The notes beneath the pieces were generated by a model that was given only the letters and a program-made list of their open reading frames with translations, did not search any database and had not been told where the DNA came from. A stretch of 64,000 nucleotides of DNA, taken from Escherichia coli (lineage in GTDB: Bacteria > Pseudomonadota > Gammaproteobacteria > Enterobacterales > Enterobacteriaceae). This document shows positions 31,891 through 55,940 of the stretch, piece after piece. The stretch is taken from NCBI RefSeq assembly GCF_048403405.1, contig NZ_CP183129.1; one strand, written 5' to 3'. Position 1 is the stretch's first letter. Each line of letters begins with the position of its first letter. Made by a program: the position numbers and the translations under genes.

Positions 31891-32784
31891 CTATTTCCAG
31901 TTACAAGCAGCTTGAAGCGGTTTTAGCGCGTTTGACAGGCCGTTTAAATTGAAAGTTGCACTTACGGGGCTCTCATTATAAGGCGTTATTTTTGTATACA
32001 TTTTGCTTGAGTTGGCTAGTTTTCGGATGAAATCAATGTCATTACCTTTATAAAAAACAGCCTTTGTATCTGTAGATACTAGCCAGTTTCGCTCAACTGC
32101 TTTCTGTTTATCAAGGCGATAAAGCATGCTGGTTTGTTCAAGGCCTAAATATACATCCCAACTAAGAAATACTTCGGTTTTCTTTTCTCGGCAAGCTATA
32201 AAAAGAGTAGGAGTAACCGCTTCTCCAAATGGAGTTCTGATATAATCATCACTTTCTAACGATAAAATTACATTTTTCGAATCATCAATTGGCGATGTAG
32301 TAATGGATGTGTGCCATTTTCCTACATCTGTGGCTTTCTCTAATTTTGATTCAGCTTGAGCGATTTTATCCTGTGGGAATAGTTTATCGTAGCAGTTTAG
32401 TCTGGCTTCTTTATCATTTTCTGCACGACATTTAGATATCTCAGAAAGATTTGGTTGCTGAGCCTCTGTTGTTACTGGCTTTTCCGTTTTAGATTTTGAG
32501 TTTACAGATGGAGTAAATGTTGGAGAAAAGAAACGATCATAACAAGATAAACGTCTATCATCATCTTTCTCATCAGGGCATTGATCTCTGCTTTCGAATT
32601 TTTCAGCAACTTTCGTTCGAGTCGGTTGTATTGACTTATCGTAACAAGAAAGTCTGTCTTTATTATTTTCTATTGCTCGGCACTGGAGTACTGCATTGAA
32701 GTTCTTATGTTCAGTTGCTGCTTGAACAGGCAGTACACTAATTGATATAAATGATGCACCTATAGAAAAAATTATATTTTTCAT
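31891..32784 (-). CDS. AT-rich secreted protein with three Cys-Tyr-Asp repeat motifs, unknown function
   Basis: 297-aa ORF with signal peptide (MKNIIFSIGASFISISVLPVQA) and three repeats RLSCYDK / RLSCYDR / RLNCYDK; visibly AT-rich. Confidence 0.7.
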   Translation of the reverse strand: MKNIIFSIGASFISISVLPVQAATEHKNFNAVLQCRAIENNKDRLSCYDKSIQPTRTKVAEKFESRDQCPDEKDDDRRLSCYDRFFSPTFTPSVNSKSKTEKPVTTEAQQPNLSEISKCRAENDKEARLNCYDKLFPQDKIAQAESKLEKATDVGKWHTSITTSPIDDSKNVILSLESDDYIRTPFGEAVTPTLFIACREKKTEVFLSWDVYLGLEQTSMLYRLDKQKAVERNWLVSTDTKAVFYKGNDIDFIRKLANSSKMYTKITPYNESPVSATFNLNGLSNALKPLQAACNWK

Positions 32785-32788
32785 TTTA

Positions 32789-33121
32789 TTATCCCTTTGG
32801 TTTAGTAAGAAATACTAAAATTCCGATAATGATATCGCCAATAACCCATAAGCTTCCAATGGTAATTAAACCTAAGCCTGTACCAATAACTGCACCGGCT
32901 TTTTCGGCATCGGATGTGGCATTATTTATTATTTCACTAGTGCCTCCTAGTCCAACTAAAAGCGTATAGATCATAAAAATATTAAATAATATAAAAACCC
33001 ACTTAATGATCCGTCCAAAAAATGAACGCTTAAGTTTTTGCAGTTGTTTACCACAAGCAGGGCAATACAATGCTGAATCGCTCACCTCTTTCTGGCATTC
33101 AGGACATTTGATTAATGCCAT
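32789..33121 (-). CDS. Zinc-ribbon membrane protein, unknown function
   Basis: 110-aa ORF with N-terminal CPEC-x12-CPAC zinc ribbon and two hydrophobic helices; 4 nt upstream of the repeat-protein gene, forming an operon. Confidence 0.65.
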   Translation of the reverse strand: MALIKCPECQKEVSDSALYCPACGKQLQKLKRSFFGRIIKWVFILFNIFMIYTLLVGLGGTSEIINNATSDAEKAGAVIGTGLGLITIGSLWVIGDIIIGILVFLTKPKG

Positions 33122-33383
33122 GTAATCCGCCTCCTTTGGATTAATACGAGTTGATATTTGTTACAAAACATTTTGATTTTATCAGATTTATTTTTATTGA
33201 TAAGTGTCAATTGATTAGCTGGTATAGAGTGAGGCATATAGAAGGGCTGGTCTGTATCAGTATGTGATGCAAAAATCCCACAGTTTCATGGAATTTTTGC
33301 ATTTAGAGCTGTGAGATAGGGTGCCTTATCGACCTTACCCTGGCAACCGATTGACGGGGGATTACTCCCCCGTCGCGGTTTCC

Positions 33384-34017: not shown

Positions 34018-35127
34018 TCACTCTGTTTCCGCTATCCATTCCGGGATTTTTGCCTCAAGCTCAAGCTGCGTGGTAAAGCCGCTGTTATCAATAGTGTGCT
34101 CGGCTTTTGCAATGATCCAGTCCTGATTATCAATCTCGCTTTTAAATCCTGTTACCGTACCATGCATTTCGGGGTAGAGTTCTGCACGTCCACGCGCCAG
34201 CGTGATGGAGAATGATGCGGCTCCGCGTTGTAGTTGCTGCCACTTTGCCGCCGCTGCGCGTCTTGCTGCCTGTTCGTTCTGATAGGTCTTGCGTAACACA
34301 AACACATTGCCTTCCGCGCCTTCCATATAATCACCTTCACGGCTGCTGCTTTTCTCCTTTTGGGGTTTTGGTGGTTTGCGGCGTTTCACGCTGACTTTTT
34401 TCTTTTCCCCGTAATTAAGATCAAGCCAGTAGGCGCGTACCCCCGTATACGCCTCGCGGTCAGCAATACGGAACTGATGGCGATCGCCGCTGCTGCGTGT
34501 AATGGCGAACGAGGGCAACGGCTGGCCCTGTGCGTTCACGCCACCACCTGGCATGATGAATAACAGATTGCCGCTTTTTACCGTGGTGATTGCGCCCAGC
34601 ATTTCCGCCATGCGCGTAAGGAAGGACATGTCGCTTTCTTCGGTCTGGTCGGCGTGGTCGATTTCGATATCCATCAGCATTTCGCTGATTTGTGGTTTCA
34701 GACCATACCGATGAGCGATGGCGGATACCACACGCTCAACGGTCACATCATGCCAGGACACCTCACGTTTAACGTTAAATTCATCCCGAAAATCTGCGCT
34801 TCTGGCTGAAACAGTCAGCCTGTCCGGCGGTCCTTCGTGAGCGATTTCATCAACAATGTAAGTGCCTTTTTCTGTCAGCGGTTCTCCTTTCCAGCCAATG
34901 AGAACCGTCAGGCGCGCGCCCCGTGGCGGTAGCTGCAACTGACCATCCGCATCATCCAGCGTGATGGTGAGCTGGTCCGCCTCAAATCCCCGGTTGTCGG
35001 TCAGTGACAGGCTCATCAGGCGCTCTGCCACGCCTGACAGCGTTTTACCCTCCGCGAGAATATCAAAATCCGGCATTTTCACGGGGTCTGTGCCCTGACT
35101 GAGCAATTGCATGGTGGTGTCGGTCAT
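34018..35127 (-). CDS. D: Phage tail protein D (late control gene D family)
   Basis: ATG at 35127 preceded by GGGAGGGAA; about 370 aa, gpD-like; the track ORF is extended 44 codons upstream. Confidence 0.8.
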   Translation of the reverse strand: MTDTTMQLLSQGTDPVKMPDFDILAEGKTLSGVAERLMSLSLTDNRGFEADQLTITLDDADGQLQLPPRGARLTVLIGWKGEPLTEKGTYIVDEIAHEGPPDRLTVSARSADFRDEFNVKREVSWHDVTVERVVSAIAHRYGLKPQISEMLMDIEIDHADQTEESDMSFLTRMAEMLGAITTVKSGNLLFIMPGGGVNAQGQPLPSFAITRSSGDRHQFRIADREAYTGVRAYWLDLNYGEKKKVSVKRRKPPKPQKEKSSSREGDYMEGAEGNVFVLRKTYQNEQAARRAAAAKWQQLQRGAASFSITLARGRAELYPEMHGTVTGFKSEIDNQDWIIAKAEHTIDNSGFTTQLELEAKIPEWIAETE

Positions 35128-35284
35128 CTGTTCCCTCCCTGTGCGGCATGGTCGCATGTGCGTGCGGAGGGGGTTACTGCTTTTTGTTGTCGCCGGGTCG
35201 GGAGAACGGCGCAGGGGTGAGATTACGCGCGTGGTGGGTGATGATTGTTGCCGAATCATTTAACGGATACAAGGGGCTGAAGCT

Positions 35285-37575: not shown

Positions 37576-40369
37576 TATCCGGGTCGCTTTCAGCGCCGTT
37601 GACAGGCTGACCCGGCCTGCCGAAAACGCCCGCCGCCTGATGGGGCAGTTTGGTGACTCCATCCAGCGAACGCAGGGGGCGATCAAAAATCTCGAGCGTC
37701 AGGCGCGTTCATTTGAGCGCGCCCGTGACGCTGTCAGTAAAGCGGATGCTGGCATCGTGAAAGCACGACGCCAGCTTAACGCCCTTAATCAGTTACAACG
37801 CACGGGTACAGTGCTCAGCGAAAAACAACAAAAGCTGATGCAGCAGTTAAGCACCCGGCTTGAACGCCTGAATGAATCGCGCACACGGGAAATTCAGAAA
37901 ATGCGGGAGCTTGGCGGAGAGCTGAAACGCCACGGCATTTCCCTGACAGGCAGCGATAACACCATCCAGCAGGCCATCAGACGCACCGAACAGTACAACA
38001 ACCAGCTTGAACGCGAACGGCAGGCGCTTGCGCGTGTAACGCGGGCGCGTGAGCGGTATTCGCGCGCGCAGGAAACAGCGGGAAAACTGAAAACAGGTGG
38101 TGCGCTGGCAATTGGTGCGGCAGCGGCGGGCGGCTATGCTGCCGGGCGTTTTTTGCAGCCTGCGATCGGGTTCGGCAAAGAGATGTCCCGCGTTCAGGCA
38201 CTGACGCGAATCGACCAGAACAGCCCGCAGTTTAAGGCGCTGCGTGAGCAGGCGTTAAAACTTGGCTCTGAAACGCAGTTCACCGCAGGCGATGCCGCCA
38301 GTGGACAGGCATTTCTTGCAATGGCTGGCTTCACTCCGCAGGCCATTCAGGCTGCGCTTCCCGGCGTGCTGAGCATGGCAACGGCTGGCGGTATGGATCT
38401 CGGCGAGACGGCAGATATTGGCTCAAATATCCTGACGCAGTTCGGCCTTTCTGCTGACCAGATGGACCGGGTCGGTGACACACTCACCGCAGCGTTTACC
38501 CGTACCAACACTGACCTTCGCGCACTGGGCGAAACCATGAAATATGCAGGTCCGGTGGCGGGTAAGCTGGGAATATCGCTGGAGCAGGCCGCAGCGATGG
38601 CTGGCGTGCTGGCGAATATGGGCATCAGAGGGAGTGATGCCGGGACGGCAATGCGTGCCAGCCTGGCTCGTCTGGCATCACCGCCAAAGGCGGCGGCAGA
38701 AGCTCTGAAAGAGCTGGGCGTGTCCGTCTCGGATGCCGGGGGCAAAATGCGCCCGATGGAGGATGTGCTGGCCGACCTTTATAAAGCCACCCGTAAATAC
38801 GGGGAAGTTGACCGGGTATCGTTCTTTAAGGACATTGCCGGAGAAGAGGCTTTCACATCGTTTATGGCGCTCGTTGATGCAGCGGGTGACGGTTCCTTAC
38901 CCAAACTGAGAAAAGAACTTGAAGGCGCGCGCGGTGAGGCTGAACGCACAGCAAAGGTTATGGCCAACAACCTTGACGGCGATCTGAAATCACTCGGCAG
39001 TGCATGGGAAGGGTTGCGCATCCGCATTGCAGATCTGATTGACGGTCCGCTGCGTTCTGTCACGCAGTGGCTCACGCGGGTGGTCTCAAAAGTGACGGCA
39101 CTGGCGCAGGCCCATCCGGCACTGACGCGCCAGTTACTGATAGCGGGAGGTGCACTGCTGGCGACAACAGCAACGGTTGGTTCGTTGTCTCTGGTTATTG
39201 GGGTGCTTCACGGGAAGCTGGCTACGTTACGTCTCGGTTTTTCTCTCCTGACCGGATCAATGAATGCTGTCAGGGGCCTGCCAGCACTATGGGGAATGGT
39301 GACGGGTTCCGTTTCTTTACTGGGAGGCGCTATCGGGGCGCTGATCAGTCCGGTTGGTCTTATCGTGGCTGCGCTTGCCGGAGCTGCCGTTCTTATCTGG
39401 AAATACTGGGATCCCATCAGGGCATTTTTTGCCGGGGTGTTCAGCGGGATTATGGAAAGGCTGACCCCGTTGCGCGAAACCTTTGAACGGTTTGGTCCTG
39501 TTTTTGACGCAATCGGAAGCGGGATCAGCCAGGTGTTTAACTGGTTTAAATCGCTGCTGTCACCGATGGAGTCCAGCAAGGAAACGCTGGATAAATGTAC
39601 CAGTGCTGGCGAGATATTCGGTAACGTTCTTGGCGGTGCGTTACAGCTTGTTCTGACACCTGCAAAAATGCTACTGGATACGCTGGCGTGGATACTTGAA
39701 AAACTTGGCGTCCTTCCGGATGAAGCGGAAAAGGCGCGCAAGAAAATCGAAGACGCACAGCGTGCGGCCATTCTTCAGGACAAGGTTGCCTTGCTTCAGG
39801 GGGACCTTGCGAAAATCAATCCGCCGAAGCCTGTGGAAAATGGCAATGGCACCGGAGGTGATAAACCCAAAGACAACAAACCGCTCACAGACAGCAATAC
39901 CGGGACGCTACGCAGACTCAGCAAAATTGCTGATAACACAGGTAAGCTGGTTGATGAGACGAAAAAACGCATTGGCCCTGGCGATATTGTCTTTAAGAAC
40001 CTGCCCCGCGCACTTGCTGTTCGTGGGGAGTGGCAGGAGCGGAAGATTGCGCAGGTCAGTAAGCCTGCCCCCGCAATTAATATCACACCCGTAGTCCCGG
40101 CTCCGCTGCCTCCGGCGCTGGTCCCTGTTGTTGCGGCCAGCTCCCGCCCGGTGGCGGAGGCCATACGATCGCCAGTGGCATCAGTTCCTGCAGCTTCCCG
40201 TAATCGGGAGCCTGCTGTCTCCAGATTTGGCGGTGAAATTCATGTTCATCTGCATAACGTTGTTACGCAGAATCCCCGCGAACTGGCGAAACTGGTCGGT
40301 GAAATGGTCAGGGCAGAGATGGAACGGCGCGCCCGTGCCGGACGTGGCAGTTTTTACGATAAAGATTGA
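37553..40369 (+). CDS. T: Tail tape measure protein T
   Basis: 938-aa product with coiled-coil N-terminal half and Gly/Ala-rich hydrophobic central segments; the start could instead be the ATG at 37562. Confidence 0.85.
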   Translation: MQIMKTLDIRVAFSAVDRLTRPAENARRLMGQFGDSIQRTQGAIKNLERQARSFERARDAVSKADAGIVKARRQLNALNQLQRTGTVLSEKQQKLMQQLSTRLERLNESRTREIQKMRELGGELKRHGISLTGSDNTIQQAIRRTEQYNNQLERERQALARVTRARERYSRAQETAGKLKTGGALAIGAAAAGGYAAGRFLQPAIGFGKEMSRVQALTRIDQNSPQFKALREQALKLGSETQFTAGDAASGQAFLAMAGFTPQAIQAALPGVLSMATAGGMDLGETADIGSNILTQFGLSADQMDRVGDTLTAAFTRTNTDLRALGETMKYAGPVAGKLGISLEQAAAMAGVLANMGIRGSDAGTAMRASLARLASPPKAAAEALKELGVSVSDAGGKMRPMEDVLADLYKATRKYGEVDRVSFFKDIAGEEAFTSFMALVDAAGDGSLPKLRKELEGARGEAERTAKVMANNLDGDLKSLGSAWEGLRIRIADLIDGPLRSVTQWLTRVVSKVTALAQAHPALTRQLLIAGGALLATTATVGSLSLVIGVLHGKLATLRLGFSLLTGSMNAVRGLPALWGMVTGSVSLLGGAIGALISPVGLIVAALAGAAVLIWKYWDPIRAFFAGVFSGIMERLTPLRETFERFGPVFDAIGSGISQVFNWFKSLLSPMESSKETLDKCTSAGEIFGNVLGGALQLVLTPAKMLLDTLAWILEKLGVLPDEAEKARKKIEDAQRAAILQDKVALLQGDLAKINPPKPVENGNGTGGDKPKDNKPLTDSNTGTLRRLSKIADNTGKLVDETKKRIGPGDIVFKNLPRALAVRGEWQERKIAQVSKPAPAINITPVVPAPLPPALVPVVAASSRPVAEAIRSPVASVPAASRNREPAVSRFGGEIHVHLHNVVTQNPRELAKLVGEMVRAEMERRARAGRGSFYDKD

Positions 40370-40375
40370 GGAGTC

Positions 40376-40870
40376 ATGGTCATGATGATGATCTACGGCA
40401 TGTTTGTTTTTGAGCTGCGCACACTGCCGCATCAGCAGTTACAGCAAAACAAAAGCTGGCGGCATGTGAAAAATGAACGCGTTAACCGTTCAGCAAGCTG
40501 GCAGTATATAGGTGCAGGTGATGATCGCATTGTGCTTTCCGGCGTGCTTTATCCTGAAATTACAGGTGGCGAAGTGTCGCTTTCGTTGCTGACCACGCAG
40601 GCATATACAGGACGCCCCTGGCCTCTGATTGATGGTGTCGGGCAGATTTACGGCATGTATGTGCTGACTGAAACGAATACGACCCGTTCCGAGTTTGATC
40701 GCTACGGTAAGGCGAAAAAGATAGAATTTTCACTGACCCTTGAACGCTGTGATGAGGATTTGCGGGAGCGCCTGCAATCCTCATCATTCAGCGATATGCT
40801 GTCCGGCTTCAAAGATAAGGTGACATCATCTCTTAACAGCGCGGCCAGTTCAGTTAAAGGGCTGTTCTGA
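40376..40870 (+). CDS. U: Tail protein U
   Basis: 164-aa product (MVMMMIYGMFVFELRTLPHQQLQ...), gpU-like. Confidence 0.8.
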   Translation: MVMMMIYGMFVFELRTLPHQQLQQNKSWRHVKNERVNRSASWQYIGAGDDRIVLSGVLYPEITGGEVSLSLLTTQAYTGRPWPLIDGVGQIYGMYVLTETNTTRSEFDRYGKAKKIEFSLTLERCDEDLRERLQSSSFSDMLSGFKDKVTSSLNSAASSVKGLF

Positions 40871-40883
40871 TTTAACACAAAAA

Positions 40884-40916
40884 CCGCTAATGGTCAGATT
40901 AGCGGTTATTTTGTTT
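40884..40916. terminator. Terminator hairpin between convergent U and invertase genes
   Basis: CCGCTAAT-ggtcag-ATTAGCGG followed by TTATTTTGTTT on the plus strand, with a T-run also on the minus-strand side; overlaps the invertase stop. Confidence 0.65.
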
Positions 40917-41493
40917 CCTGACTCTTCTCTATTGTTCCGATTGATTCTCCTGCGGGGTGGTAACGATAAATCGTCGATATACCAATGCCGTAAATTATTG
41001 CCAGTTGTTTTCTGTCGTGCCCGTTTTTGATCAGCCTTGCTATTTGCTCATGCTGTTCTTTTGTCAGCTTCGGTCGACGTCCGCCTGTGCGCCCCCGTGC
41101 GCGTGCTGCCGCCAGTCCGGCCAGTGTACGTTCAACAATTAATTCACGTTCCATTTCAGCCAGGGCACCCATCACGTGGAAGAAAAAACGCCCCATTGGA
41201 GAAGATGTATCTATGCTGTCGGTCAGACTGCGAAAATTAATTCCTCGCTCCCGTAGTTCCCCGACGAGAGAAATCAGATGTTTCATGCTTCGCCCGAGGC
41301 GATCCAGTTTCCAGACAACCAGCGTGTCACCTTTTTGAAGGCGCTTTAAAGCGCGTTTTAATCCCGGTCGGTCTGTCTTTGTCCCGCTTAATTTATCTTC
41401 AAATATTTGTTCACATCCTGCACAAACAAGAGCGTTTCGTTGCAGGTCTGTATTCTGGTCATTTGTTGATACCCTTACATAGCCAATCAGCAC
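40906..41493 (-). CDS. pin: Serine DNA invertase (Hin/Gin/Cin/Pin family)
   Basis: GTG at 41493 gives MLIGYVRVSTNDQNTDLQRNAL... with the catalytic Ser in GYVRVST and a C-terminal HTH; the track ORF starts at TTG 41511. Confidence 0.9.
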   Translation of the reverse strand: MLIGYVRVSTNDQNTDLQRNALVCAGCEQIFEDKLSGTKTDRPGLKRALKRLQKGDTLVVWKLDRLGRSMKHLISLVGELRERGINFRSLTDSIDTSSPMGRFFFHVMGALAEMERELIVERTLAGLAAARARGRTGGRRPKLTKEQHEQIARLIKNGHDRKQLAIIYGIGISTIYRYHPAGESIGTIEKSQETK

Positions 41494-41547
41494 GCTGAAT
41501 CTCCCGTCCAAAAGCGCAAATCATGCCATGCAGGCCGGAAACGGCCA

Positions 41548-41575
41548 TTATCTAAAACCTCGGTTTACAGGAAAC
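41548..41575. other. gix/pix-type recombination site (left)
   Basis: TTATCTAAAACCTCGGTTTACAGGAAAC, differing at one base (position 6, T vs C) from the Mu gix sequence TTATCCAAAACCTCGGTTTACAGGAAAC as I recall it. Confidence 0.75.
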
Positions 41576-42581
41576 GGTAAACAAGGCTGGTAACGCCGTC
41601 CAAAAGACAGGCGATATCTTGTCCGGTGGGCTTACTTTTGAAAACGACTCAATCCTTGCCTGGATTCGGAATACTGACTGGGCAAAGATTGGTTTTAAAA
41701 ATGATGCCGACAGCGATACTGATTCATACATGTGGTTTGAAACAGGCGACAACGGCAATGAATATTTCAAATGGAGAAGCAAACAAAGCACCACAACAAA
41801 AGACCTGATGAATCTTAAATGGGATGCTTTGTCTGTTCTTGTTAAAGCCCTTTTCAGCAGTGAAGTAAAAATATCGACAGTCAATGCACTGAGGATATTT
41901 AATTCATCTTTTGGTGCTATTTTTCGCCGTTCTGAAGAATGCCTGCATATCATCCCGACACGAGAGAATGAGGGAGAAAATGGTGATATAGGGCCACTAC
42001 GCCCCTTTACGCTTAATCTCAGAACTGGTCGGATAAGCATGGGGCATGGTCTTGATGTTACAGGGGATATATTTGCAAACCGTTTTGCAATTAACAGTAG
42101 TACCGGCATGTGGATTCATATGCGTGACCAGAATGTTATTTTGGGACGCAATGCGGTATCCACCGATGGTGCACAGGCATTACTTCGTCAGGACCATGCT
42201 GATCGCAAATTTATGATTGGTGGGCTGGGAAATAAGCAATTTGGCATCTACATGATTAATAACTCAAGGACAGCTAATGGCACCGATGGTCAGGCGTACA
42301 TGGATAATAACGGGAACTGGCTTTGCGGTTCGCAAGTTATTCCCGGCAACTATGGCAATTTTGATTCCAGATATGTGAAAGATGTTCGACTTGGTTCACA
42401 GCAATATTATGGAGTGAACAACTGGCAAACATGGAATTTCCAGTGCCCGTCAGGTCATGTATTGTCTGGTATTAATGTTCAGGATACAGGGTCCAACTCT
42501 GCCGATAATATAGCGGGCGTTTATTACAGACCCGTTCAAAAGTATATAAATGGCACCTGGTATAATATAGCGAGCGTTTAA
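41576..42581 (+). CDS. Alternative tail-fiber C-terminal segment (Sv'-like), silent in this orientation
   Basis: Frame continues in phase through the left site ([14 protein letters not shown]...) and has a TAA inside the site, so there is no own start; ends [12 protein letters not shown] like the active fiber end. Confidence 0.7.
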
Positions 42582-42582
42582 T

Positions 42583-43110
42583 ATGATGCACTTAAAGAAC
42601 ATAAAAGCGGGTAATGCTAAAACACTGGAACAGTATGAGTTAACAAAGAAGCACGGAGTCATCTGGCTTTACTCTGAGGACGAAAAAAACTGGTATGAGG
42701 AAGTGAAAAACTTTCAGCCAGACACCATAAAGATTGTTTACGATGCAAATAATATTATTGTCGCCATCACTAAAGATGCCTCCACGCTTAACCCTGAAGG
42801 TTTTAGCGTCGTTGAGGTTCCAGATATTACAGCCAACCGCCGCGCTGATGATTCAGGAAAGTGGATGTTTAAGGATGGAGCTGTAGTTAAACGGATTTAT
42901 ACGGCAGACGAACAGCAACAACAGGCCGAATCACAAAAGGCCGCATTGCTTTCCGAAGCTGAATCAGTCATCCAGCCGCTGGAACGCGCTGTCAGGCTGA
43001 ATATGGCAACAGACGAGGAACGCACACGACTGGAAGCATGGGAACGCTACAGTGTTCTGGTCAGCCGTGTGGATACGGCAAATCCTGAATGGCCACAAAA
43101 GCCTGAATAA
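42583..43110 (+). CDS. Tail fiber assembly protein, alternative copy
   Basis: 175-aa product [23 protein letters not shown]..., paralogous to the 43139-43672 gene. Confidence 0.8.
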
Positions 43111-43115
43111 AAATT

Positions 43116-43135
43116 AAGGCCCGCTATCGGGCCTT
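43116..43135. terminator. Hairpin between the convergent tail fiber assembly genes
   Basis: AAGGCCCG-ctat-CGGGCCTT. Confidence 0.5.
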
Positions 43136-43138
43136 GTC

Positions 43139-43672
43139 TCATTCAGGTTGTTCGGGAAATGTTACTGGCAGGCTGGAGGTGTCTGTAGATTCGACTTTCT
43201 GCGCATAGAGCATCCACTCGGTTAATTTTGGTTTATTCTCGTCGGAAATGATGCCCAGCCGTAGCTGTGAGTCCCATAGCTGGGTTTTATCCCTGACAAG
43301 TTGCAACAGGCTTTGCTTTTCATTTTCCGCCTGCTGCCTCTGCTCTTCCTCGGTATAAGTTCGCTTTACCACTACGCCATCTTTGAACATCCATTTACCC
43401 GAAATGTCAGCACGGCGATTTGCTGTAATATCAGGTAATTCAACGACGCTTGCGCCTTCCGGATTAATTGCTGAAACATCCTTTTCAATACAAATAATAA
43501 CGCCGTTATGGTCATAGACCATTTTTAAAGTGTCTGGCTGGAAATTCTTTTGTTCCTCATACCAGTTTTTTCCATCCTCTGAATAAAGCCATTTGATGTT
43601 AAATTGTTTCGTTAGCTGGTATTGCTCTTTTGTTTTAGGGTTGCCAGCAGTAATGTTTTTTAAGTGCATCAT
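43139..43672 (-). CDS. Tail fiber assembly protein (G-like), active orientation
   Basis: 177-aa product [23 protein letters not shown]..., immediately downstream of the fiber gene. Confidence 0.85.
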
Positions 43673-43674
43673 CG

Positions 43675-45777
43675 TTAAATACTCCCCGCGTTATACCACG
43701 TCCCATTAATGCAATACTGAATTGGCCTTGCCTGAGTTGTATCAATTAATTCATCACGGTTTCCGTTAACTGAACCCGTAACGACATAACCTGACCTGTC
43801 AGACCAGCCGGGACCATTCCATGTCTGAACAGATGACAGACCGCCAAGGCGAATACCTGTAATAAACCTTGAGTTACATTCTGCCTGCGTGTATGCACCA
43901 ACATCTCCCGCTGAGGGTTTGCGGGTCGTGGTGTAAAACTCTGACCAGTCAGCTTCAAAGCCATAACCATCACGCGCTGAACGATAAAAAATGCCGCCGT
44001 TCCTGTAATTCACGCGGAACTGTACAGCAGGGCAACTCCCCGCATTCATATTGAAATGAAGAATTAACGTTGATGCGCCGGTGATTCTGGCGCAATAAAC
44101 TCCGCTGTTCCAGTTCCAGCCAACAGCTTTATCATTTCCGACAGTGCTTCCTGTTTGCCCTAAAGCAAATGCAGGTTGTTGATTTTTCGTGTTGTAGTCT
44201 CGTCGCCAGCCAGGAGCGTAAGCATCACCATGATTGATATAAGTGAATTGAGCGTTAGTAATTCCGCCACCGCTGGACGTGCTCGGCGTGGTAACGCGTA
44301 TGGTCATTGCGCCGCGAGTGCCAATAACTTCCACCACAGCACCTGCAAGACAAATATTTCCGCAACCTGTATCTGTAATGACCTTATTATTTGCATAAGC
44401 CCATGAGCCTTTGCACATCCAGTAAGGATGGTTAAATGCTCCCTGACTCTCCAGCCACGAAATAAATTGCGCGGTTGTCCAGACCTGACTATCGCCACCA
44501 ATATTCAGCCATGCGCTATATGCGCGGCAGGCACCAATATTTTTGGTGAAGGTATCTTTTCCTGGAATATCTGCGCCGTTCTGGTTTTTCTGTAATGCGC
44601 CAGAAGCCTGATTTACCGTTTCCTGTAAACCGAGGTATTCGATAACGGCAGCAACGGTCGATTTCGCAAGAATATCCCGCCCGACTTTTGTCAGGGTTGC
44701 CAGGCTGGCGACATCATTCCCCGTAAAATACGGAAACCTGTCTGCCGCAGTAGCAAGCCCGGCCAGCGCCGTCAGGGTGGCATCTTTCGGTTGCTTACCC
44801 GCAAGCGCTTTAGTCATGGTGGTCGCAAAATTCGGGTCGTTTCCCAGCGCCGCCGCTAACTCGTTCAACGTATTCAGTGCGTCAGGCGACGAGTCTACAA
44901 GTGCGGCAATCGCGGCCATCACATAAGCCGTGCTTGCGATCTGAGTATTATTAGTCCCTTTTGGCGCAGTTGGCGTTGTTGGCGTTCCGGTCAGTGCAGG
45001 ACTATTTAAGGGCGCTTTCTTGTTCGTTTCATCCATTACCGCCTTAACCGCTTTTGGCGTCGCAGCCAGCGTTTCAGATGTGCTGTTGGTGGCGCTACTG
45101 AGCTGAACTATCCCTTTTCGCGCAGTGGTAGCGTCCTGTGCGGTGTATTTGCCATTAGCCAGGTCATATGCCGCCTTAACAGCCTTTGGCGTTGCCGCAA
45201 GCGTTTCAGACGTGCTGTTAGTGGCGCTGCTAAGTTGAACAAAGCCTTTTGCGGTCAGCGAGGCGTCCGGGTGACGTCGTGAGTGTTCATGCTCTTTCAG
45301 TTTGTCATCCACGTAATCCACTGTGGCCATCACCATGGTGTTATCCACGGTAAGCGCCACGGTGGCAGTGCTGGATACGGTCAGAATGGTGCGAAATGTT
45401 TGTGCACGTCCTGACCCTTCGGCAACGGCTGGCTTGTAACTTTCGGCAGTATTGCCTACTGCGATTAAATCGCCGTGCTCATCAAACACACCAATTTCCC
45501 GGATCCAGAATCCGCCCGTTTCTGGAGGAATAACCAGCTCCGCAATAATGCGGTTCTGATGTGTTGCGTCCAGTATGACGCGATTAACAGTGTGTCGCCA
45601 CACCTCATGCACCAGACGGGTCTGCTTACTGTCTGGTGTGGGCAACGTGCCGCCACCGTCGCCCACGGCCATATGAGTCAGGCGGACAGGCTTACCATCT
45701 GGCGCGGCTGCCTGAGCTAATTTTTTTGCACCCGTATCGGTGATAACGGTTTTAAATTTTCGTGTTGTGGTACTCAT
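43675..45777 (-). CDS. H: Tail fiber protein H, with its C-terminal ~320 codons inside the invertible segment
   Basis: 700-aa ORF; reading frame passes through the right recombination site at residues [11 protein letters not shown]. Confidence 0.85.
44618..44645. other. gix/pix-type recombination site (right), inside the tail fiber gene
   Basis: GTTTCCTGTAAACCGAGGTATTCGATAA, the reverse complement of the left site with two mismatches. Confidence 0.75.
45041..45268. repeat. Tandem direct repeat (two copies of ~96 bp, 132-bp period) inside the tail fiber gene
   Basis: Encodes [23 protein letters not shown] twice, 44 aa apart. Confidence 0.8.
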
Positions 45778-45779
45778 GC

Positions 45780-46310
45780 TTAATCGTCCGGATAAATGGT
45801 AATGACTTCACCGTCGTAAGTTGCTGCCGCCGCGAAAATATCTCCCGGGATCTCCTGAATGATATTCAGCCCTGTCATGTGGCGGCTGACCGGGCGGGCA
45901 TCAGCAATCAACCGCTCCATTTCCAGATACATTTCCTCCGTCACGCCACTGTCCAGCGTGCCGACTTCAACGGTAAATGTTCCCGGTTCTCCGCCGAACT
46001 CCCACCACTCAGACACGCGAATGAGGTATCCCAGCGGCTCAATGGCCCGGCGCAGTGCGCTGATGGTCCCTTTGTGTCGGTGTATCAGCCATGCATCACG
46101 AATCACCTGTCGCTTTGTCTCTTCCGGCCAGTTGCGATCCCAGCGGTCAACGGAAAATGCCCAGGCGAGATAAGGCAGCAAATGCACCGGGCAGGTGTCC
46201 GGTGACCACAGCGTGTTGAGGTCTACCGGGATGTCTGTAATGCGCGCTCCGACAGCTTCGGCGCAACGCATGAAACGGCTGGCTGATGGCGGTAACAGTG
46301 AATTACTCAT
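45780..46310 (-). CDS. I: Baseplate/tail protein I
   Basis: Start at 46310 gives 176 aa, P2 gpI size; overlaps the J stop. Confidence 0.75.
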   Translation of the reverse strand: MSNSLLPPSASRFMRCAEAVGARITDIPVDLNTLWSPDTCPVHLLPYLAWAFSVDRWDRNWPEETKRQVIRDAWLIHRHKGTISALRRAIEPLGYLIRVSEWWEFGGEPGTFTVEVGTLDSGVTEEMYLEMERLIADARPVSRHMTGLNIIQEIPGDIFAAAATYDGEVITIYPDD

Positions 46311-47199
46311 TGCGCCCACCTTCGCTGATGGTGAATGACTCACAGCGCGCCGCCTGTATGTCGCTGATGGCCAGATTCTGTGTGGGTTCGATTATCTCCA
46401 CGCGTTGCACACCGTGCACATGCAGTGCGGCAGCAATGGCGGACAACGCCACGTCCTGACCGATAAGCCCCTGCTCAGCCAGCCACTTCCTGAACGACGA
46501 TTCAGCCGCCGCCAGAATAGGTTCGGATTCCGGACCGGGGTAAAAGTACAGTTTTGCATTCAGCCGCCATGTCACGATTCTGGCGCTCTGTACGGTCAGG
46601 CGGTCGGCCACCGGGCGGGTATCCTCTGCATTCAGAACGGCGCGAACGGTATTAAGCAACGCCTCCGTTGCTGTGCCGTCGCCTTCAGTGGACAGGATGG
46701 AAACCGTCACATTTGCCGGAGACGGACTGATAGCCCGCGCATCACGCACCAGACCGCTGGCGCTGCGGGCAAAATACTCGTATGCACCTGACGGGCCAGC
46801 AACACTCAGGCCGTCGTACGCCCGCTGCGCCCGCAGTCTCAGCGAGGTGTCGCTCTCCATCACCGCGTCGGTGGTATCCGTTGCCGGAGTGATAACCAGG
46901 CGCTTTGTGTTCATATTGCCCGCGAGGTTGTCCAGGTCTGTCCCGGCGCTGTGGCTTAACATGCAGGCGCGTGCCCCCTCGTTAACCCGCTGGCGTAACA
47001 GCATTTCACGAAACGACATGGTTTGAGCGATAACGTTCAGGGGTTCCGATTCCAGCTCCAGCGCGGCGGAAACGGCTTCACGCTGTTCGGCGGGATAGGA
47101 CGCAATCATCATGGCTTTTGTGTCAGCCAGAATTGCTTCAAAGTCAGGCTCCGCGATGATGGCGGGTTCCGGTAACTGGGAAAGGTCAACGGCGGGCAT
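46303..47199 (-). CDS. J: Baseplate assembly protein J
   Basis: 298-aa product in P2 J position and size. Confidence 0.8.
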   Translation of the reverse strand: MPAVDLSQLPEPAIIAEPDFEAILADTKAMMIASYPAEQREAVSAALELESEPLNVIAQTMSFREMLLRQRVNEGARACMLSHSAGTDLDNLAGNMNTKRLVITPATDTTDAVMESDTSLRLRAQRAYDGLSVAGPSGAYEYFARSASGLVRDARAISPSPANVTVSILSTEGDGTATEALLNTVRAVLNAEDTRPVADRLTVQSARIVTWRLNAKLYFYPGPESEPILAAAESSFRKWLAEQGLIGQDVALSAIAAALHVHGVQRVEIIEPTQNLAISDIQAARCESFTISEGGRNE

Positions 47200-54188: not shown

Positions 54189-55940
54189 ATGATTCAGGAC
54201 GCTTTTGTGCGCCAGCGTGCGCGACAACTTTACTGGCAGGGTTATCCGCCCGCAGAAATATCACGTCTGATGGGAATAAACCCGAACACGATTTATGCGT
54301 GGAAAAAACGCGACCAGTGGGATGAAACGCCACCCGTGCAGCGTGTCACGCAGTCCATCGATGCGCGCCTCATCCAGCTTACTGAAAAACAGAATAAAAC
54401 AGGCGGTGACTTTAAGGAAATAGACCTGCTGACCCGGCAACTTAAAAAGCTGCATGATGGCCAGCCGGATGTGATGGCCGCAGGAAAGAAAGGCCGGGCG
54501 AAAAAACTCAAAAATCATTTCACGCCGGAACAGATTGCCGCACTGCGGGAAAAAATCATCAGCAGGCTGGAGTGGCATCAGCGGGGCTGGTTTGACTCCC
54601 TGACCCTTTGCAGGGAAGCCGGGATACGTAACAGGATGATCCTGAAATCCCGACAGATTGGGGCGACCTGGTATTTTGCACAGGAAGCACTGCTGATGGC
54701 GCTGCGTGACGATGTGGTGCAACCTTATCAGCGTAACCAGATTTTTTTGTCTGCGTCGCGTCGTCAGGCGTTCCAGTTTAAAAGCATTATTCAGAAGGCC
54801 GCGGCTGAAGTTGATGTGGAGCTGAAAGGGGGCGATAAAATCATCCTCTCCAACGGCGCAGAGCTGCATTTTCTCGGCACTTCTGCTGCGTCGGCACAGT
54901 CCTATACGGGCAATTTTTATTTTGATGAATTCTTCTGGGTCAGTCGCTTTGCTGAACTGCGCAAGGTGGCTGGCGCTATGGCAACCCTCAGCGGACTGCG
55001 GCGCACCTACTTCTCCACGCCATCCACCGAAACGCACGAGGCATACGCCTACTGGAACGGCGACCGCTGGAACGAGAAAAAGGCCACGCATAAACGCCAG
55101 CGTTTTTCTGTGGACTGGAAAACGCTGCATAACGGGCTTATCTGCCCTGACCGGACGTGGCGGCAAATTGTCACGCTGGAAGATGTGGTTAATCACGGCT
55201 GGAAACACACCGATATTGATGAAATTCGTGATGAAAACACCGAAGACGAGTTCCTCAATCTCTATATGTGTGAGTTTGTCCGCGAAGGGGAATCGGCATT
55301 TAACCTGAATATCCTGATTGGCTGCGGTGTTGACGGATACGACGACTGGAAAGACTGGAAACCTTTTGCTCCCCGCCCGATGGGGAATCGCCCGGTATGG
55401 ATTGGGTATGACGCAAACGGCAGCAGTGGCAACGGCGACAGCGGCGCTGTGTCCGTGGTGGTTCCTCCGGCTGTTCCTGGTGGCCGTTTTCGAACGGTGG
55501 AGACGCGACGCGTTCAGGGGCTGGAGTTTGAAGAACAGGCCAGAGTCATTGAAGAGTTCACGTGTCGCTACAACGTGGAACACATCGGCATTGATGTGAC
55601 GGGCGGGAACGGGGAGGCTGTTTATCAGATAGTGAAACGGTTTTTCCCTGCCGCTATTCCGTACACCTTCACGCTGTCATCAAAACGGTCGCTGGTACTG
55701 AAAATGCTGCAAATAATGCGTGCCGGGCGGTGGGAATACGATCGCGCCGAACGCGAGCTGGTCGCGGCCTTTAACGCCGTGCGTAAGGTGAAAACACCGG
55801 GCGGCTTTATCACTTACGAAACGGACCGCGCGAGGGGGATCAGCCACGGCGACCTTGCGTGGGCAACCATGCTTGCTGTCATTAACGAACCAATTGGCGG
55901 CGAAGGAGAAAACGAGCGTTTCACGGTTATGGAGTTCTGA
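54189..55940 (+). CDS. P: Terminase large (ATPase) subunit P
   Basis: 583-aa product, divergent from O as in P2. Confidence 0.85.
   Translation: MIQDAFVRQRARQLYWQGYPPAEISRLMGINPNTIYAWKKRDQWDETPPVQRVTQSIDARLIQLTEKQNKTGGDFKEIDLLTRQLKKLHDGQPDVMAAGKKGRAKKLKNHFTPEQIAALREKIISRLEWHQRGWFDSLTLCREAGIRNRMILKSRQIGATWYFAQEALLMALRDDVVQPYQRNQIFLSASRRQAFQFKSIIQKAAAEVDVELKGGDKIILSNGAELHFLGTSAASAQSYTGNFYFDEFFWVSRFAELRKVAGAMATLSGLRRTYFSTPSTETHEAYAYWNGDRWNEKKATHKRQRFSVDWKTLHNGLICPDRTWRQIVTLEDVVNHGWKHTDIDEIRDENTEDEFLNLYMCEFVREGESAFNLNILIGCGVDGYDDWKDWKPFAPRPMGNRPVWIGYDANGSSGNGDSGAVSVVVPPAVPGGRFRTVETRRVQGLEFEEQARVIEEFTCRYNVEHIGIDVTGGNGEAVYQIVKRFFPAAIPYTFTLSSKRSLVLKMLQIMRAGRWEYDRAERELVAAFNAVRKVKTPGGFITYETDRARGISHGDLAWATMLAVINEPIGGEGENERFTVMEF

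Follow-up and report, generated by a model that had tools for sequence, protein, structure and literature searches.

A very probable Gin/gix-type tail-fiber inversion switch in a P88-like prophage of Escherichia coli

Genes and sites of the module

The window analyzed here is a stretch of 64,000 nucleotides (64 kb) of E. coli DNA that carries a P2-like prophage. In window coordinates, the features of the module are:

40882–40907: hairpin with T-runs on both strands, between a convergent tail gene (40376–40870, plus strand) and the invertase 3′ end; a consensus match only, predicted and probably a bidirectional terminator
40906–41493, minus strand: serine DNA invertase gene, Gin-like, 195 aa, GTG start; transcribed, as in Mu, in the direction leading away from the segment
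41404–41475: presumed Fis-binding enhancer (sis), inside the invertase gene (gene nt 19–90), the equivalent of the annotated P1 cin recombinational enhancer
41548–41573, plus strand: invertase-proximal gix-like site, TTATCTAAAACC-TC-GGTTTACAGGAA, central TC at 41560–41561
41556–42581, plus strand: silent, startless alternative fiber C-terminus of Sv type, 339 aa past the crossover point, matching tail-fiber PHROGs
41561–44632: invertible segment, 3,072 bp between crossover points
42583–43110, plus strand: silent tail-fiber assembly gene of U type, 175 aa, 91–94% identity with the U proteins of Mu, P1 and SfMu; PHROG 136
43116–43135, minus strand: GC-rich hairpin followed by a T-run, directly 3′ of the current assembly gene and between the convergent assembly genes; a consensus match only, the probable (predicted) fiber operon terminator
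43139–43672, minus strand: current tail-fiber assembly gene of U′ type, 177 aa, 97% identical to Mu U′; Pfam Caudo_TAP
43675–44633, minus strand: current variable fiber C-terminus of Sv′ type, 318 aa
44620–44645, minus strand: fiber-proximal gix-like site, TTATCGAATACC-TC-GGTTTACAGGAA, central TC at 44633–44632
44634–45777, minus strand: constant N-terminal part of the tail fiber, about 382 aa, P2 H / P88 type, outside the segment

The segment measures 3,098 bp from outer site end to outer site end, and its GC content is 45%, against 54–56% in the flanking prophage. A preliminary description of this DNA had placed a serine invertase gene beside a 3.1-kb segment bounded by sites close to Mu gix, and both points hold. 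The sites match the Mu gix 26-mer with one mismatch at 41548–41573 (25/26) and two at 44620–44645 (24/26), where the chance expectation is 0.00 (100 shuffles). Like the sites of Fis/enhancer-dependent DNA invertase systems, they are an inverted pair with identical central dinucleotides, here TC; the outer half-sites of the two disagree at two positions. The exact inverted match between them is 25 bp (ACCTCGGTTTACAGGAAACGGTAAA); the 28-bp length given in the preliminary description is reached only with one mismatch allowed. Two mismatches extend the repeat to 34 bp, the length of the classical "34-bp IR", and a repeat finder stretches it to 62 nt at 79%. The site at 41548–41573 matches the gin-proximal SfMu site exactly, and the sites of P88 and of the strains GF8 and GF161 are identical to those of the window. 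No further gix-like site occurs in the 64 kb at ≤3 mismatches. This points to a two-state switch, and a multi-state shufflon is rejected on the same ground.

The invertase combines a resolvase catalytic domain that carries a serine nucleophile with a C-terminal helix-turn-helix (Pfam Resolvase, E 2e-50; HTH_7, E 6e-13). Its open reading frame extends at most over 40906–41511 (minus strand). The GTG at 41493 is likely the true start, preferred because it gives 195 aa, the length of the RefSeq model in near-identical prophages. The nucleophilic Ser9 sits in MLIGYVRVSTNDQ, the same sequence as in Gin; 4m6f and 3uj3, both structures of Gin, are the top PDB matches (E about 1e-100), and the PHROG match is PHROG 125, "DNA invertase". 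Identity to Mu Gin is 86% overall and about 98% across the catalytic domain; the P88 invertase is 98.5% identical, and P1 Cin 73%. In the DNA-binding domain, identity to Gin drops to about 52%, and for this reason its affinity for the gix-like sites is one that we infer. Informative family assignments for the module came from PHROGs, Pfam and PDB; NCBIfam gave just sub-threshold matches of the invertase to other serine recombinases and no specific family for the fiber, tips or chaperones.

In Hin, Q151, R154 and L155 and the basic residues 47, 48 and 51 contact Fis/enhancer and are invertase-specific (PMC3798978); the Q/R/L residues of the DNA-binding domain and the basic residues of helix B mark Fis-dependent invertases (PMC3798978; PMC3575834). 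Here, alignment to the Hin DNA-binding domain places the equivalents of the first three in E-Q-I-A-R-L, while K46, R47 and K50, corresponding to Hin 47, 48 and 51, are present within LKRALKRL. The P1 record places the recombinational enhancer at cin nt 19–90. Placed by homology, with the description of Hin and the annotation in the P1 record as guides, the presumed enhancer of the window's invertase gene would occupy the same positions, within a stretch (nt 1–110) that is 100% identical to Mu gin. The fis gene is absent from the 64-kb window; the chromosome flanking the prophage is that of E. coli, which encodes Fis.

The fiber-proximal site is read in frame inside the tail-fiber gene, as had been described (codons V-I-E-Y-L-G-L-Q-E), and the 11-residue peptide that spans it is aa 378–388 of a 700-aa open reading frame (43675–45777, minus strand) comprising the constant part and the current tip. 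The constant part consists of a tail-collar N-terminal domain and two 44-aa fiber repeats (Pfam Phage_tail_fib and two Phage_fiber_2). It is 87% identical to the fibers of P88 and 520873, each of which has one more repeat. Inside the segment lie two convergent tip and chaperone pairs, one per strand, again in agreement with the preliminary description. The expressed pair is homologous to Mu S′/U′ and the silent pair to Mu S/U. For the current tip, identity is highest to the variable part of Mu S′ (98%), followed by SfMu gp49 (95%) and P1 Sv′ (86%). The silent tip shares 95% identity with SfMu gp52, 83% with the P88 fiber C-terminus, and 69% and 67% with Mu S and P1 S, respectively; its partner is 91% identical to Mu U. 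The frame of the silent tip is open from the invertase-proximal site, in the same frame as the fiber reading. It has no start of its own because an in-frame TAA stands at 41553–41555, in the outer half-site.

Evidence for inversion and alternative explanations

When the segment is flipped in silico, the constant part is joined in frame to the other tip, as the preliminary description had anticipated, giving a 721-aa fiber of which 715/721 residues are identical to the annotated fiber of GF161. Both states occur in nature. Among complete E. coli genomes, the window's orientation occurs in 211 and the flipped orientation in 195; in the latter the flipped 7-kb sequence is collinear, the best match being 99.6% in one piece. 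Over 15 kb, the only differences between the sister strains GF8 and GF161 are one SNP and an exact inversion between the site centers. Their breakpoints lie in the 25-bp identical gix core, a flip at the central dinucleotides yields the GF161 sequence without any other mismatch in the segment, and the distinct outer half-sites remain with their flanks. In EPEC, segments of P2-like prophages flip within clonal cultures, as published read-level evidence shows (PMC4272514). A separate observation is that two prophages of this kind, one in the state opposite to the other, are present in some E. coli.

If the module were a frozen relic, a descendant of a G-type system that no longer inverts in this prophage lineage, its orientation would be fixed and its invertase inactive or unexpressed, or its sites degenerate. 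The outer half-site differences between the two sites would fit such a history, as would the outcome of a simple sigma-70 scan, crude and uninformative, that detected nothing promoter-like ahead of the invertase gene; the near-identical SfMu module may likewise give no visible switch. This history is nevertheless very unlikely. The invertase gene is intact and its catalytic domain nearly that of Gin, GF8 and GF161 have the same two site sequences yet differ by exactly this inversion, and near-equal orientations in about 400 genomes fit ongoing flipping rather than a fixed state. Less credible still is general RecA-dependent recombination between inverted repeats, for example the U/U′ genes (70–79% similar) or the 34-bp repeats, in place of the invertase. 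Longer imperfect inverted repeats do lie inside the segment (I1, I2 and I4; 65–168 nt at 70–79%), but the GF8/GF161 breakpoints fall in the gix core and not in the U/U′ repeats, and RecA-mediated inversion via the latter is rejected on these positions. A dedicated invertase adjoins the segment, and RecA works poorly on a repeat of 25 bp.

The apparent switch might also be an artifact of assembly or annotation, the locus holding merely two convergent fiber and chaperone pairs and the silent fragment being an independent gene. RefSeq does annotate this fragment on its own, as "hypothetical protein" or "phage tail fiber protein", with a start at an internal TTG. However, the fragment has no tail-attachment N-terminal domain, its frame is open back to the site and closed there by the in-frame stop, and the same sequence forms the 3′ part of the 721-aa fiber gene in flipped genomes. 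The probability left to this explanation is close to nil, the lowest of those weighed here.

Proposed operation and implications

With this anatomy, these reading frames, homologs for every part and both natural states with breakpoints inside the sites, the locus is very probably a Gin/gix-type inversion switch of the Mu G / P1 C kind, carried in E. coli by a P2-like prophage (Xuanwuvirus, P88-like). The sequence itself holds nothing contrary to a Gin-type switch. Dependence on Fis and the enhancer, and inversion activity in this particular strain, are inferred.

If the switch operates as in Mu, the minus-strand late tail operon would read the constant fiber part (45777 to 44634) and continue into the segment, so that the variable part and cognate chaperone facing the operon are those made. 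The opposite pair, with neither promoter nor start codon, would stay silent. In the sequenced state, the product would be a fiber with the Mu S′-type tip, together with the U′-type chaperone. Inversion likely involves: binding of invertase dimers to both inverted 26-bp sites; assistance by host Fis on the enhancer within the 5′ end of the invertase gene; and cleavage at the central TC, rotation and religation, which would invert the 3,072 bp. The constant part would then be joined in frame to the other tip, giving the 721-aa fiber and the U-type chaperone. A lysogen culture should accordingly release two kinds of particle that differ in receptor specificity.

By homology to Mu, SfMu and P88, the two orientations would confer different host ranges. 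The orientations of the Mu segment do so (PMC4406740), and host-range residues have been mapped by mutagenesis in the P88 tip homologous to the silent tip here (PMC5285337). For host-range prediction of the prophage, or for the use of P88-like phages, both tips are worth considering. The orientation found in an assembly is a snapshot of the majority state only, and genome annotations routinely list the silent tip as a separate "hypothetical" or "tail fiber" gene.

Roles beyond host range are conceivable. Gix-like segments elsewhere in the genome could be further targets of the invertase, acting in trans. One alternative fiber product, made in the lysogen, could by analogy block the adsorption of other phages and protect the host; a recent proposal attributes such protection to PinR/StfE2 of the rac and e14 prophages (bioRxiv 10.1101/2025.03.28.646004). 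Finally, the silent tip, at only 69% identity to Mu S, may recognize a receptor not yet described. Taken jointly, a switch that reaches beyond host range in these ways and a silent tip with such a receptor are improbable.

Comparison with known systems

The system is already known: the module is annotated in P88, 520873, SfMu, Mu, P1 and P7 and in hundreds of E. coli genomes, and its mechanism has served as a paradigm from about 1980 onward. The copy described here is an ordinary, close one of the Mu/P1 system and carries little weight for discovery. Its DNA is 91–93% identical to the segments of Mu, P1, P7, D108 and SfMu.

The Mu G segment shares the layout, with a constant fiber part, [Sv U / U′ Sv′] and an invertase transcribed away from the segment, and the segment DNA is about 91% identical. 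Mu, however, is a transposable Muvirus, whereas the host element here is a P2-like prophage; Mu Sc is about 170 aa long, against the 382 aa of the P2 H / P88-type constant part; and the silent tip has diverged to the 69% given above. Unlike Gin, the invertase has a Hin-like recognition helix (GISTIYRY) in its divergent DNA-binding domain, and no com/mom genes lie downstream.

The closest elements by prophage type are the Xuanwuviruses P88, 520873 and 503458 (P2-like, Peduoviridae), in whose records a "DNA invertase" is annotated. The P88-type gene order is the same: tape measure, tail protein, invertase, segment, fiber, gpI and gpJ. P88 was deposited in the opposite state, its fiber bearing the tip that is silent here (83% identical), and 520873 differs in having more divergent sites and silent tip. 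The P88 paper makes no mention of inversion (PMC5285337).

The longest continuous DNA match is to the SfMu G segment, covering the 5′ part of the invertase gene and the whole segment at 93.2% in one piece. SfMu differs in being a Muvirus of Shigella, and its other site has a C-to-G change beside the center, suspected by its authors of impairing inversion and absent here. For SfMu, induced and infection-grown lysates showed no host-range difference, and the authors suspected a defective site (PMC4406740); owning the module thus does not guarantee a visible switch.

The P1/P7 C segment has a homologous Sv/U/U′/Sv′ set, with 90–93% DNA identity over the shared part, and is likewise a Fis/enhancer-dependent invertase system. 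The P1 segment is longer (4.2 kb) and has inverted repeats of about 0.6 kb, cin has its 3′ end towards the segment, and cix differs more from gix (5 mismatches, central TT).

The loci of e14 (P/Pin), Salmonella (H/Hin) and EPEC E2348/69 have invertases of the same small serine family and 26-bp sites. Hin flips a promoter rather than a coding segment, and at one EPEC locus there are three sites with four states, in contrast to the two sites here. In the P2-like EPEC prophages, sequencing and PCR found both states coexisting in clonal cultures (PMC4272514).

Layout of the invertible segment

Five coding elements lie in window 40.9-45.8 kb:

Coding elements of the invertible locus (window coordinates)
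40906-41511 (-), invertase-like ORF; a probable GTG start at 41493 gives 195 aa, the length of the RefSeq models in near-identical prophages
41619-42581 (+), ORF call corresponding to the silent tip
42583-43110 (+), assembly gene of U type, ~176 aa, convergent with 43139-43672
43139-43672 (-), assembly gene of U' type, ~176 aa, convergent with 42583-43110
43675-45777 (-), fibre ORF call, 700 aa

An inverted-repeat search returned arms at 41544-41605 and 44588-44649. The left site (41548-41573, +) is TTATCTAAAACC-TC-GGTTTACAGGAA and the right site (44620-44645, -) is TTATCGAATACC-TC-GGTTTACAGGAA; the phage Mu record carries TTATCCAAAACC-TC-GGTTTACAGGAA at each end of the G segment. Comparison of the window sites with this Mu 26-mer gives 25/26 and 24/26 identical positions, bearing out the proposed close match to gix. 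With up to three mismatches allowed, the Mu 26-mer occurs at only two places in the 64 kb, the two window sites, and no match was found in 100 dinucleotide-preserving shuffles. The preliminary description had specified 28-bp inverted sites: such sites are present, but their length is not strictly 28 bp, as the exact match spans 25 bp and extends to 34 bp with two mismatches. Repeat length is the only correction which that description needs.

As originally proposed, the right site lies in frame within the fibre gene, its encoded peptide forming aa 378-388, and translation of the left site follows the same register. The silent plus-strand frame is open from the left site onward and is closed upstream by a TAA in the outer half-site, indicating a startless C-terminal part. 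The pipeline annotates it as a separate gene because an ORF was called from an internal TTG, an artefact. In-silico inversion of 41560-44633 joins the constant 382 aa of the fibre to the silent tip, creating a 721-aa fibre; inversion at the sites thus exchanges tip and chaperone in frame, in agreement with the predicted swap. The fibre operon enters the segment from the constant part, and translation is possible only for the tip/chaperone set that faces it.

The two sets also have the identities expected from the initial reading, which placed the current C-terminus and its assembly gene on one strand and an alternative pair on the other. The expressed variable part shares 98% identity with that of Mu S', and its chaperone 97% with Mu U'. 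On the opposite strand, the TAA-closed frame and its neighbour are homologues of S and U: the silent tip shares 95% identity with SfMu gp52, 83% with the P88 fibre C-terminus and 69% with Mu S, and its chaperone 91-94% with U of Mu, P1 and SfMu. The constant part is of P2/P88 type, with a tail-collar N-terminal domain and two Phage_fiber_2 repeats. These are tandem 44-aa repeats at aa 173-257 (gene part 44634-45777, -), with cores at aa 181 and 225. In alignment, the constant parts of the P88 and 520873 phage fibres are 44 aa longer, equal to one extra repeat; the fibre shaft varies in repeat number.

Inversion among related genomes

Complete E. coli genomes were searched with a 7-kb stretch (39500-46500), either as is or with the segment flipped in silico, and a match was called collinear when at least 80% lay in one place. 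The window orientation is collinear in 211 genomes and the flipped orientation in 195; in each search the top matches align in one piece at 99.6% identity. Both states also occur among deposited phages, one in P88 and the other in 520873.

The most informative comparison is between GF8 and GF161, two Swiss chicken-meat isolates whose prophages occupy an identical chromosomal position and share their protein accessions. Across 15,001 bp they differ by the inversion and one SNP, located in the tape-measure gene. When GF8 is flipped between the central dinucleotides, its sequence becomes that of GF161 with no further mismatch, and the two distinguishable outer half-sites remain with their own flanks. 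The crossover therefore lies inside the 25-bp core that both sites share, which is where cleavage at the central TC would put it. These breakpoints contradict an origin of the inversions in RecA-mediated general recombination between repeats, as they fall outside the longer 70-79% U/U' repeats that such recombination could use. A frozen relic, in which the module no longer inverts, is likewise unlikely: the invertase gene is intact, GF8 and GF161 have exactly the window's site sequences, and the two orientations divide the genomes roughly 50:50. The comparative evidence for site-specific inversion of the segment, drawn from assembled sequences, is strong. In EPEC E2348/69, invertible loci of P2-like prophages and of a Mu prophage coexist in both states at the read level in clonal cultures (PMC4272514).

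E. coli MSI001 (NZ_CP076645.1) contains two copies of the prophage region (1261202-1268205 and 1571764-1578764), each 98.5% identical to the window, one in the window orientation and one flipped. In this genome, two invertases and four gix sites naturally occur together.

The invertase, its likely mechanism and host range

The invertase shares 86% identity with Mu Gin (only two residues differ over the first 120 aa), 98.5% with the invertase of P88 and 73% with P1 Cin. It contains the Pfam domains Resolvase and HTH_7, and among solved structures it best matches those of Gin, 4m6f and 3uj3. The nucleophile Ser9, whose role in Gin has been described (PMC3575834), is present. By manual count from the alignment, the DNA-binding domain has diverged to ~52% identity with Gin and ~57% with Hin. 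The helix 1 Q/R/L and helix B basic residues, uniquely conserved in Fis/enhancer-dependent invertases (PMC3798978), are kept. Nucleotides 1-110 of the gene match Mu gin exactly. They take in nt 19-90 (window 41475 to 41404), which corresponds in position to the enhancer of Cin-mediated inversion annotated in the P1 record.

By analogy with these systems, invertase dimers at both sites would synapse on a Fis-bound enhancer in the 5' end of the invertase gene, presumed to lie ~70 to 145 bp from the proximal site. Cleavage at the central dinucleotide would then proceed via a phosphoserine link, followed by 180-degree rotation and religation.

In Mu, particles of the G(+) state (S/U) infect E. coli K-12 and those of the G(-) state (S'/U') have other hosts (summarized in PMC4406740). 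Mutagenesis showed that P88 fibre residues 716-746 set host range (PMC5285337); these residues fall in the tip homologous to the silent tip of the window. The SfMu tip is >95% identical to Mu S' but uses a different receptor, the O-antigen (PMC4406740), so exact receptors are not readable from identity.

Prophage setting and known counterparts

The window is E. coli chromosome from the fadL-fadIJ-yfc fimbrial region (~98.7% identity), and the closest genome carries a P2-like prophage between flk and pdxB. A gpD-like late tail gene (34018-35259, -; 413 aa, weak VgrG-related match) is intact in the window; in the closest genome (L008 6192-7045) it is truncated or interrupted, with an 801-nt VgrG/Pvc8 family CDS and a pseudogene fragment annotated, so the window prophage looks more complete than its nearest relative. 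Just beyond the left end of the prophage, region 31891-33300 includes a T6SS-associated TagO/VasI-like gene (31891-32784, -); the same region in the closest genome holds a zinc-ribbon gene, a Hok/Gef toxin and an Ogr/Delta-like gene. As Ogr is a P2-like prophage gene, the left boundary of the prophage lies near 33 kb.

Between the portal gene (55940-56986) and a ParM-like gene, 57635-59014 (+) contains ORFs of 165 aa and 280 aa, whose RefSeq counterparts are named 'DUF4760' and 'hypothetical'. An NCBIfam search gave no family match for either, and the sole PADLOC match is weak (Csx27, E 1.6e-5). In P2-like phages this position is a recognised hotspot of anti-phage cargo, so the ORFs may form an uncharacterised defence pair. 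The adjacent plasmid-type partition genes (59417-60376, -, and about 59100-59414), annotated in the closest genome as ParM and 'plasmid partitioning/stability family protein', are unusual cargo for an integrated prophage. Elsewhere, window 1-8000 has low GC (40-48%), a tRNA-Arg(CCT) (3033-3107, -) and a tyrosine-integrase-domain ORF (1714-2907, -). The E. coli genomes that match best lack its first 1.6 kb, and the stretch probably forms the border of a tRNA-linked genomic island.

The whole neighbourhood of the segment matches the Xuanwuvirus (P88-like, Peduoviridae) phages 520873 and 503458. The segment DNA itself is 91-93% identical to the G segment of Mu/D108, the C segment of P1/P7, and SfMu. 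Its GC of 45%, against 54-56% for flanking prophage genes, fits a horizontally exchanged module. It is very improbable that the invertase acts in trans on other segments, that the locus has a lysogen-level role like the adsorption block of the rac/e14 prophage system PinR/StfE2, or that the silent tip has an undescribed receptor, even taking the three jointly. The locus belongs to a site-specific inversion system that is among the oldest known. In this prophage family the invertase is annotated in deposited genomes, and experiments have shown that such segments flip in P2-like prophages (PMC4272514). The Mu reference is deposited as G(+), whereas the window represents the equivalent of G(-).
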